Source: Candidatus Babeliales bacterium (GTDB lineage Bacteria; Babelota; Babeliae; Babelales; JANWKD01). Taken from it: DNA of 64,000 bases. The stretch is from the NCBI GenBank assembly GCA_963722255.1, contig CAVRJO010000001.1:288001-352000 (forward strand), written 5' to 3'. The notes under the pieces are model-generated. The model was not told the DNA's origin and did no database searches. It was given only the letters and a program-made list of their open reading frames with translations. Of the stretch, positions 1,882 to 4,780 are shown one piece after another. The stretch's first letter is position 1, and each line of letters opens with the position of its first letter. Position numbers and translations under genes: made by a program.

Positions 1882-1910
1882 TTGACATTATCTTGTTTTA
1901 TAGTTATTCT
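1882..1910 (+). promoter_or_regulatory. sigma70-type promoter for 1952..2428
   Basis: TTGACA-17 nt-TATTCT; GGAGG RBS before 1952. Confidence 0.55.
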
Positions 1911-1951
1911 ATATTTAAAGGAGATTAAGGTAAAAATTTGGAGGTTTATAT

Positions 1952-2428
1952 ATGAAAAAATTATTAGTGTCTATATCAATCTTAACCTTTTGTATTACTC
2001 TTGGCTCAGCAGTTTTTGGAATGTTCCGTCCAAAAAAATCGATACTTTTAAATACTTATGCTATTTCATCTAATTTGAGGACAAATTCAACTATTTCCAA
2101 ACTGCTTACAAGCTCGGTTTATTCAATACGAGTTTCTTCGCCGATTAAAGAATCACCACAAACGCATCGTTCAGCTAAATTGCCGAAACTTGAACCTATT
2201 AAAAAAGATAGAATAACAGCTGCAAAAGAAGATTTGAAGAAGCTTTTAAACACACCAATTGAAAATCTTTACCAACAGCTCGAAATAGTCGTTTCACCTA
2301 CAACCAAGCTGGCCCTTAACTATTTTACGTATCTTACAACAAAAAATGATATTAAGACCTTATATGATCTAGGATTAAAGGTAAGCACTAAATTTAAAGA
2401 ATCGTTAAGAAAATTAAAGATGTTCTAA
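1952..2428 (+). CDS. Hypothetical secreted protein with a presequence-like mature N-terminus
   Basis: Strong RBS and an MKK-hydrophobic signal peptide, followed by MFRPKK... Confidence 0.7.
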   Translation: MKKLLVSISILTFCITLGSAVFGMFRPKKSILLNTYAISSNLRTNSTISKLLTSSVYSIRVSSPIKESPQTHRSAKLPKLEPIKKDRITAAKEDLKKLLNTPIENLYQQLEIVVSPTTKLALNYFTYLTTKNDIKTLYDLGLKVSTKFKESLRKLKMF

Positions 2429-2980: not shown

Positions 2981-3044
2981 ATGGCAGCTCTTATTTCAAG
3001 AGCTGCCACAACTTTAAAAAGTCATCAATATTCATTTGTTGAGC
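2981..3044 (-). repeat. Diverged second copy of the rsmA 3' end plus terminator hairpin
   Basis: 58/61 nt identical to 3991..4051. Minus-strand frame reads AQQMNIDDFLKLWQLLK*. Confidence 0.9.
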
Positions 3045-3076: not shown

Positions 3077-3976
3077 ATGAAAAAATCTTTTAACTATAGT
3101 ATCAAAAAATGCATTAATTTTAGCACATTTGCTCTTCTCATAGCCAGCTCGGCGAACTTTTTTTATTTAGAATCAAAATGCACCCGCTTCCCATGCCAAA
3201 ATGCCCACCGCTTTGACAACCATGAATTCGTTAAAGGAACTTATCTTTTGGACAGACTCATTTTTACAAAAAATTTCCCTAATAATTTAAAACTACAAGT
3301 AAATGATGGTGGTGATTTTAATTTTCCAATAACAAAAAATAAATTAATCGACAATGTTTTCTATTTTAATAAACAGGGGCATGGTGACTTATATTTACAC
3401 GACAATTCAACAGTTGTGATCAGTGATAATCAAGGCAATAAATTGGTTGTAACACGACGACAAGAAGAACACAGAGGAAATAAGCTCAATTTTCCCGATA
3501 CAATAACCATCTACCTTTTTAACAAAAAGAATTATGAGGCTAACAAAAAAAATTATGGAACAAAAATTGTATTTGATGTTAATAAATTTGAAAACCTTCT
3601 CACGCAAACCACCACTTTTGATAATTTACCTGGAAGGGTAAGAACAGTAGAAAGAGTTGGCGGAAAAGATCCAAGACCTGCGATAGGGAGCATGAAACTC
3701 AAACTATCATTTGACCCAAGCTATAATAATATCGACTTAGAAATAGCATTTGAAAACCGTTTTGATAACAAGATTGAAGTAAAAATAGAAAGCCATGAAA
3801 ACCCCCTTATCGAAGCCACGTCAAGCACCTCTTACAAAAATTATGATATCACAACTTGGGATAAAGATTCTCAAAACAAAATATCTTATTACAATGATTT
3901 ATACAAAAATAACATTATTGTAAAAGAAGCAATGACGCAGGATGATTATAATGCAATAAAATACGTCTTAGAATAG
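3077..3976 (+). CDS. Hypothetical secreted protein (beta-rich); start placed at ATG 3077
   Basis: AAGGAGA RBS before 3077 and an N-terminal hydrophobic stretch. The ORF-track start at 2981 lies within the repeat. Confidence 0.7.
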   Translation: MKKSFNYSIKKCINFSTFALLIASSANFFYLESKCTRFPCQNAHRFDNHEFVKGTYLLDRLIFTKNFPNNLKLQVNDGGDFNFPITKNKLIDNVFYFNKQGHGDLYLHDNSTVVISDNQGNKLVVTRRQEEHRGNKLNFPDTITIYLFNKKNYEANKKNYGTKIVFDVNKFENLLTQTTTFDNLPGRVRTVERVGGKDPRPAIGSMKLKLSFDPSYNNIDLEIAFENRFDNKIEVKIESHENPLIEATSSTSYKNYDITTWDKDSQNKISYYNDLYKNNIIVKEAMTQDDYNAIKYVLE

Positions 3977-3988
3977 AAAATGACAATT

Positions 3989-4021
3989 TTATGGCAGCTC
4001 TTATTTCAAGAGTTGCCATAA
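3989..4021. terminator. Hairpin overlapping the rsmA stop, between convergent genes
   Basis: ttatggcagctctt-atttc-aagagttgccataa inverted repeat. Confidence 0.6.
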
Positions 4022-4780
4022 GTTTAAAAAGTCATCAATATTCATTTGTTGTGCTCTCAATGCAAGGGTTTCATCAGAAAGTTTGGAAAGATCATAATGC
4101 GTTGATACCAAATTATTCCGCAAGGTCCTTCGTGGATGCGCAAAGCATAACTTAATAAATTTCCAAAAAGCTTCCTCATTTGGTATCGGTTTAACATCCT
4201 TTTTAGGCTTAAAATAGACCAATCGAGAAAACACCTTAGGGGGAGGAAAAAATGCCCCAGGTGGAATCTTTTTCAAAAGTTTAAGATCAAAGTAATACCC
4301 ATAAAATAAAGCGGGAAATCCATAGCCCTTCCCACCTTTTTTTGTTAATTTTTGAGCAACTTCTTCTTGGGTCATGACAACGCCTTCTTGAATAATTTCT
4401 CTGTGCTTATAAAGCAACTGAAAGATTGGGAACGTTATCTGATAAGGCAAATTGGCTAATAAAACCCATGGTTTATATGGTTCAAATTGAGAAAAATCAA
4501 CATCCAAAATATTTTCTTCTTTAACGTCTAAGCGTTTATCATTAATTGATTCTCGCAAATATGAAACCCATTGTGTATCAATCTCAAAAACCCACAAACG
4601 AGCAATATTCTGTTCTAAAATAGCGCGTGTAAGAAATCCATCTCCACCGCCAATTTCAAAAACGGACGTTTCAGGAGTTAATTTTACCGTTTGAATAGCC
4701 TCATCAACAACCGACCGATCACGCAAAAAATGCTGGCCAAACTGCTTTTTTAAAGGGATACCTTGCGAATATACTGTCAT
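4001..4780 (-). CDS. rsmA: 16S rRNA m6,2A dimethyltransferase RsmA/KsgA
   Basis: KKQFGQHFL, EIGGGDG, ANLPYQI, FFPPPKVFS and RRTLRNNL motifs. Confidence 0.95.
   Translation of the reverse strand: MTVYSQGIPLKKQFGQHFLRDRSVVDEAIQTVKLTPETSVFEIGGGDGFLTRAILEQNIARLWVFEIDTQWVSYLRESINDKRLDVKEENILDVDFSQFEPYKPWVLLANLPYQITFPIFQLLYKHREIIQEGVVMTQEEVAQKLTKKGGKGYGFPALFYGYYFDLKLLKKIPPGAFFPPPKVFSRLVYFKPKKDVKPIPNEEAFWKFIKLCFAHPRRTLRNNLVSTHYDLSKLSDETLALRAQQMNIDDFLNLWQLLK

Follow-up and report, generated by a model that had tools for sequence, protein, structure and literature searches.

A small, basic secreted protein of a Candidatus Babeliales bacterium and its acid-free N-terminal segment, with candidate presequence-like leaders elsewhere in Babelota

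The window, a stretch of 64,000 nucleotides (G000:C1:288001-352000), comes from the genome of a Candidatus Babeliales bacterium, a protist parasite of the Babelota/Dependentiae (G000; 1.62 Mb, 34% GC). An earlier note on this DNA had taken its source to be a member of the Dependentiae, and the MreB protein of the genome bears this out: its labelled close relatives, up to 86% identical, are mostly filed under Babeliales, Dependentiae, or TM6, with some under other labels. The genome encodes ADP/ATP translocases, two signal peptidases I, two secretins, and two GspF genes. The gene studied here is a short ORF whose product we call P0001 (Table 1). Orphan genes for secreted proteins surround it in the interval that separates a PD-(D/E)XK nuclease gene from the 3' end of a KsgA-like gene (a name given from its sequence), and in a genome of the same genus (G130) the site is occupied by other genes. 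The single DNA run that we examined gave no cover on the ORF. Because sigma-70-like promoter sites number 27 in the region against 17.5 in shuffled sequences, the promoter in Table 1 is to be read as a consensus match only.

Table 1. Features of the P0001 locus, in window coordinates
Feature	Position	Strand	Basis
Sigma-70-like promoter match, TTGACA-17-TATTCT	1882..1910	+	Consensus match only
Shine-Dalgarno GGAGG, with the ATG 7 nt further on	1940..1944	+	Sequence
ORF of 158 aa, basic secreted protein (P0001) of a three-member family	1952..2428	+	ORF list and homology
Sec-type signal peptide, residues 1-23, predicted cut AVFG↓M	1952..2020	+	Own heuristic; equivalent junction in P0003
Acid-free, basic, Ser/Thr-rich N-terminal segment; invariant M24, R26, K28	2021..2149	+	Translation and alignment
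Conserved hydrophobic/Ser element, residues 48-62; invariant L52, S54, S55, S62	2093..2137	+	Alignment
Variable basic linker, residues 67-99	2150..2248	+	Identity of 7/33 to P0002 and 7/33 to P0003
Conserved helical C-terminal domain, final helix basic and amphipathic; invariant K154, L155, K156, F158	2249..2425	+	Identity and model helices

Other features were observed close by. A 64-nt direct repeat (2981-3044 and 3991-4054 of the window, 94% identical), which takes in a hairpin as well as the 3' end of the KsgA-like gene, flanks an orphan ORF at 3077-3976, and the arrangement looks like an insertion scar. The ORFs starting at 915 and 1952 have in common a TTGACA block (839-853 and 1875-1889) and a 23-nt block around the ribosome-binding site and start (907-929 and 1944-1966, 91%), which suggests that a promoter and signal-peptide cassette may have been reused. 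The first of these ORFs (915-1685) encodes a secreted protein with Met at +1, a HELGH motif, and a weak Peptidase_M50 match (E 0.36), and is a possible zinc metalloprotease.

Gene calls and signal peptides were made with our own heuristic, which favors Met at +1 by a bonus and lets some false positives through. By this heuristic, P0001 has the basic n-region, hydrophobic h-region, and small residues at -3 and -1 of a Sec/signal peptidase I substrate (V/G at -3/-1 in P0001, A/G in the homolog P0003). The signal peptide proposed by the earlier note therefore stands by this heuristic, and the junction of a small residue and Met recurs in P0003. Translation also confirmed the composition described for the first 43 mature residues, namely, three Arg, four Lys, ten Ser, four Thr, and neither Asp nor Glu; the first acidic residue is at mature position 44. 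The mature protein carries a net charge of +15 in 135 residues, which ranks 9th among 1276 secreted proteins, and its C-terminal hydrophobic moment is in the top 6% of the same set. The AlphaFold model is of low confidence (pTM 0.34), with pLDDT below 50 as far as residue 79 and helices of about 65 to 77 in the C-terminal part. Fold searches with this model gave a best Z of 4.5 and no E under 0.001, and are uninformative either way.

A HMMER search of 1.84 billion representative proteins returned a family of three: P0001 itself; P0002, which is 55% identical and has 134 aa as called from the +1 Met; and P0003, which is 35% identical, has 153 aa, and carries a signal peptide. The pI is about 10 in all three. 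P0002 is also an example of gene callers starting at the +1 Met. No further member appeared in an alignment search of proteins of 73 to 277 residues, longer and shorter forms being covered by the unfiltered search alone, and a single-sequence word search returned P0001 only. In 260 other genomes of the phylum, the family was not found except for one marginal match in a 1659-aa frame; none of 360 candidate stretches from JGI metagenomes was confirmed as a member; and a single-protein genome search gave three marginal matches (E about 0.005), two of them containing stops. Pfam, NCBIfam, and PDB sequence searches returned nothing usable for the family, and ESM Atlas features gave no usable match for mature P0001 or for a strong comparison leader.

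The N-terminal segment (here, the leader) is identical to P0002 and P0003 at 27/43 and 12/43 positions, and the C-domain at 38/59 and 23/59. Within the leader, residues 45 to 66 are identical at 15/22 and 9/22, and over residues 24 to 44 P0003 is identical at just 3/21. The C-terminal K-L-K-x-F is among the positions invariant in all three proteins, together with those in Table 1. The leader thus appears as conserved as the helical C-domain (27/43 against 38/59, to P0002), an argument that draws on three sequences and is driven by one close pair. A C-terminal KxKxx occurs in all three members, and it is not enriched (13/466 versus 10/740 in G000; 8/810 versus 24/1282 in the other genomes). The C-domain was also considered as an RNA polymerase alpha C-terminal domain and rejected: PF03118 finds RpoA alone in G000, and hhalign gave a probability of 0.2% against three Babelota alpha C-terminal domains. 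The RpoA C-terminal domain itself lies in a 73-aa open frame (G000:C2:228104-228274), while its relatives have 260 to 380 aa, which suggests an assembly indel.

The earlier note had read the leader as a mitochondrial presequence. The composition part of that reading stood, since the leaders of all three members are basic and poor in acids (0, 0, and 1 D/E in the first 43 mature residues), and like matrix presequences they are N-terminal, within 20 to 60 residues, low in D/E, and net positive. Arg numbers 3, 3, and 2 against Lys 4, 3, and 6 in P0001, P0002, and P0003. No R-3 or R-10 motif is present in any of the three leaders, and the best 18-residue hydrophobic moments (8.3, 6.9, and 5.2) do not exceed those of shuffled sequences (p 0.23, 0.51, and 0.83), in a test that discriminates poorly; several better-looking leaders elsewhere score no higher in it. 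As for the IRV↓SS site proposed as an R-2 processing site, the string is there, but the two R-x-x-S matches in the P0001 leader are at chance level (P = 0.20; P = 0.06 for a pattern tailored to the site), and its arginine, R60, is kept in P0002 and replaced by His in P0003. A conserved MPP site (R-2, R-3, or R-10) was not found in the family. A Tom20-type motif occurs in all three members, as expected by chance (P 0.70 to 0.90). P0003 fails a motif-blind composition rule for presequences (in 30 residues, at most one D/E, net charge of at least +3, at least two R, and at least four S/T). About 20% of mouse presequence sites fit no motif (PMC7723863), so that the lack of a conserved motif makes import of P0001 less likely, not impossible. 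Judged from these tests, the presequence reading of P0001 is weak.

A 43-residue mature start free of D/E is uncommon, not extraordinary. It was found in 7/466 secreted proteins of G000 against 31/2621 interior windows (1.5% versus 1.2%), and in 19/810 mature starts against 37/4672 interior windows of five other genomes. The acid-free start is longer than the composition of the protein itself predicts in P0001 (P 0.019) and P0002 (0.040), with 0.25 for P0003. AT drift is unlikely as the origin of the leader composition, because GC is 0.32 in the leader and 0.31 in the C-domain and the sequence is conserved. Among the 34 proteins that pass the composition rule, P0001 alone keeps a basic body, with +0.13 charge per residue beyond mature position 90, where the values of the other 33 lie between -0.12 and +0.04. 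Taken with the presequence tests, these charges indicate that the acid-free stretch is real and conserved, but that it is one end of an all-basic protein. A separate, disposable leader, as the earlier note implied, was not borne out: the body shares the basic character of the leader, which is conserved to the same degree as the C-domain.

The Met at the start of the mature chain belongs to a wider pattern. Met directly follows the predicted cut in 193/466 secreted proteins of G000 and in 280/810 from samples of 0.4 to 0.8 Mb each of five other genomes (G177, G130, G001, G005, and G138), or about 35 to 41% of secreted proteins; a first pass without the Met bonus gave 124/489 in G000. In a curated set from Gram-negatives, Met accounts for 0.00% of the P1' residues (PMC2638155, supplementary file 2). 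Behind the +1 Met, the +2 residue is D/E/N/Q in 151/193 chains of G000 and 204/280 of the other five genomes (73 to 78%), against 85/273 and 173/530 behind other +1 residues. This bias is partly ordinary, because Gram-negatives have about 45% D/E/N/Q at P2' (PMC2638155, supplementary file 2); section 9 of that paper did not confirm Kajava 2000 beyond P5'. The +1 Met is not a second start, since a Shine-Dalgarno sequence precedes 2/230 +1-Met codons of G000 against 121/230 true starts; that of P0001 has none. Met-D/E/N/Q is the NatB pattern (PMC9692967), and as NatB is ribosome-tethered, we can only infer N-terminal mimicry. In the P0001 family M24 is invariant and the +2 residue is F, F, and G, outside the major Met-D/E/N/Q type. 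It is possible, and in our view rather doubtful, that signal peptidase makes a host-mimicking Met N-terminus with a second address, mostly Met-D/E/N/Q, with a presequence in about 1% including P0001.

The screen of other +1-Met proteins that the earlier note had proposed was productive: roughly 1% of secreted proteins, from several families, have leaders that are rich in Arg and Ser and contain R-3-type motifs. The composition rule selected 17/502 mature starts in G000 against 48/3626 interior windows (p 0.002) and 17/839 against 61/6261 in held-out genomes (p 0.012). Composition alone shows little, because cytoplasmic N-termini of G000 follow the rule at a similar rate (14/602). With R-x-[FYL]-[SAT] added, the counts were 7/502 in G000 (OR 4.7), three or four of them paralogs, and 7/839 in the held-out genomes (OR 2.8, p 0.03), where the shifted control R-x-x-[FYL]-[SAT] with the rule gave 9/839 (OR 4.9). 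Over all mature N-termini, R-3 motifs are not enriched (1.49 versus 1.43 to 1.46 per 1000 residues). Among chains in which Met is followed by a residue other than D/E/N/Q, R-x-[FYL]-[SAT] was found in 14/77 in the held-out genomes against 6.1 in shuffles, and the stricter R-x-[FYLM]-S-[ST] in 3/77 against 0.3, with 0/762 in the rest. The three proteins with the stricter motif (RPFSS, RSFSS, and RSLST) belong to three different families, and no acidic residue precedes the motif in any of them. The same group in G000 gave no significant motif excess (6 versus 3.9; 0 versus 0.3), and in the pooled set the shifted control was also raised (17 versus 9.6); the grouping was post hoc, it was one of several comparisons made, and related sequences do not count as independent. 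Chains of this group are more often basic and acid-poor (22/118 versus 23/355, p 2.4e-4). Several candidates have a neutral body with a short hydrophobic segment behind the leader, which presumably resembles inner-membrane stop-transfer precursors. A presequence-like leader class among Babelota secreted proteins is likely on these sequence grounds, and a few of its members look like much better candidates for mitochondrial import than P0001.

The mitochondrial carrier family (PF00153) was found in 31/201 genomes of the phylum and in 0/14 controls; no match was found in G000 or in the three members of its family searched. Of ten carrier genes fetched (L261-L270), seven pass the signal-peptide rule and five show a junction of a small residue and Met by eye. 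Carriers of Babela have already been published (PMC4378268). Carriers with a signal peptide would fit export to host mitochondria, as for LncP, and equally insertion in the bacterium's own membrane as importers. A cleaved signal would leave the carrier N-terminus outside, which is the orientation of carriers in mitochondria.

We tentatively favor the reading that P0001 is a small secreted basic protein whose N-terminus is retained and working and which would bind anionic surfaces. After Sec export, signal peptidase I would cut at the predicted junction, where sequence and homology place the end of the signal peptide, and leave a Met-started chain. This chain may cross the outer membrane through the type II system, whose genes are present. 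On the host side it would bind an anionic surface, most likely a membrane that encloses the bacterium or a host organelle, as its charge and conservation suggest, and contact could be made through the N-terminal M-x-R-x-K cluster, residues 48 to 62, and the basic amphipathic C-terminal helix. Cleaved presequences usually drift in sequence, and the leader is held to its sequence like the folded part, which argues for its retention. Against this reading, acidic residues keep away from the N-terminus beyond composition in P0001 and P0002, and mitochondrial targeting is also open to a leader that is conserved and never cut off.

More doubtful is the proposal that signal peptidase unmasks a Met-started presequence and that the protein is released to the host cytosol and imported via TOM/TIM23, perhaps with MPP processing. 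The missing R-3 and R-10 motifs, the chance-level R-2 site with its Arg lost in P0003, the lack of amphipathic excess, a body as basic as the leader, and the failure of P0003 in the composition rule all speak against it, as do three results from G000, namely, acid-free starts no commoner than interior windows, the lack of a significant R-3 excess in its Met group, and no carrier detected. Type II secretion moves folded proteins, whereas TOM/TIM23 needs unfolded ones. On the other side, basic, acid-poor leaders occur in all three family members, and P0001 is in the Met group that is more often of this kind and that shows the motif excess in held-out genomes. Presequences match the P0001 leader in length, absence of acids, and R/K/S content (PMC7723863), lysine-based presequences are functional in Dictyostelium (PMC3578813), Chromulinavorax remodels the host mitochondrion (PMC6561590), and carriers with signal peptides exist in the phylum. 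We lean toward the existence, somewhere in the phylum, of a Met-started presequence class routed to host mitochondria, and think it rather unlikely that P0001 belongs to it.

Less likely again, P0001 remains in the bacterial periplasm or on the surface, binds envelope polyanions, and never reaches the host cytosol. A Sec signal peptide alone delivers to the periplasm only, and Phe at P2' hinders E. coli LepB (PMC10269814), so that cleavage of P0001 may be slow and the protein membrane-tethered; 14/473 Met-started chains have F/W/Y at P2'. P0003, though, has Gly at this position, and the P0001 gene is unlike that of a core envelope protein: its neighbors are lineage-specific orphans for secreted proteins, its site is variable, and it is near-absent from 260 other genomes of the phylum. 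A nucleus- or nucleic-acid-directed effector, whose basic clusters would form a nuclear localization signal or a histone-like surface, is improbable: the charge is high throughout and R26 and K28 are invariant, but the three members share neither a classical K-[KR]-x-[KR] pattern nor a bipartite one, and the resemblance to the alpha C-terminal domain failed.

Bacterial effectors with mitochondrial signals are already known. P0001 shares with matrix presequences (MPP, R-2; Icp55, R-3; Oct1, R-10; PMC7723863) an N-terminal Met, a length of 20 to 60 residues, few acids, and basic plus hydroxylated residues, and differs in that a bacterial signal peptide precedes the leader, Arg does not outnumber Lys, the hydrophobic moment shows no excess, no cleavage motif is conserved, and the passenger is basic. 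Anaplasma Ats-1 (PMC2824752) and EPEC EspF (PMC10269737) are bacterial proteins whose N-terminal signal uses host mitochondrial import; Ats-1, a type IV substrate, is cleaved in mitochondria (PMC2824752). The Ats-1 signal is at its own N-terminus, whereas any presequence of P0001 would lie behind a Sec signal peptide until signal peptidase uncovered it, and the sole known exit is type II. Mycobacterial Rv1813c, like P0001 small and with a cleavable export signal, reaches mitochondria in Dictyostelium by its folded domain, and its unfolded N-terminal region is dispensable (PMC10269737); a leader behind a signal peptide therefore need not be an address. Legionella LncP (PMC3252375) and the Babela carriers (PMC4378268) come from bacteria that parasitize protists and are related to the carriers of the mitochondrial inner membrane, and LncP is imported into host mitochondria (PMC3252375); carriers use no presequence, and P0001 is unrelated to them. 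Closest in setting are the signal-peptide ORFans and ankyrin proteins of Babelota (PMC6561590, PMC4378268), like P0001 lineage-specific, with Sec signal peptides, and presumed host-directed. P0001 stands apart from them by its unusually basic character and its lack of a repeat domain, and the accessible parts of these two papers mention neither a +1 Met nor a second address. In the accessible parts of the mainly open-access literature, which for Babelota comprised PMC6561590, PMC4776705, PMC12172432, PMC4378268, PMC5911502, and bioRxiv 2026.03.27.714854, we found no description in Babelota of a presequence behind a Sec signal peptide or of the +1 Met.

Such effectors bear on the question of the wrapping and exploitation of host mitochondria by Babelota, for which the sole named candidate that we met in the accessible text is a distant mitofilin-like gene (PMC6561590); neither a mitofilin-like gene nor a PF00153 carrier was found in G000. 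Standard predictors given the full-length protein do not register a presequence that follows a signal peptide, and effectors of this type would therefore have escaped notice. If the proposal is true, type II-type export would feed host mitochondrial import, while Ats-1 and LncP, the best documented of the cases surveyed, use type IV injection. The importance of P0001 itself is modest because its case for import is weak. The screen yields a short list of candidates for import. Stronger presequence-like leaders than that of P0001 were seen in other Babelota at L164:44-679(-), L096:2684-3325(+), L098:2694-4901(-), L062:14006-14425(-), L061:17385-19793(+), L150:1735-2943(-), and L137:707-3310(-); the five of these seven proteins scanned gave no Pfam match. 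G000 has Arg-rich leaders with repeated words like R-S-L-T or R-x-F-A-T at C2:478553-479509, C2:479602-480384, C2:508161-509234, and C2:639539-640624, which are four paralogs found in G000 only among 201 genomes. Further Arg-rich-leader secreted proteins lie at C2:684876-685700(+), C2:15489-16385, and C2:478015, and an E-x-E-L-K-like tail is found at the C-terminus of several Arg-rich-leader proteins of G000. The protein at C2:684876-685700(+) and another of G000, at C1:746509-748944(+), are likewise counted as stronger candidates than P0001. Two ankyrin and two GNAT proteins of G000 (C1:276574-277527, C1:277540-278475, C1:753085-753780, and C1:753809-754504) have mature chains with a short basic start followed by a mildly hydrophobic segment, which is signal-anchor-like.
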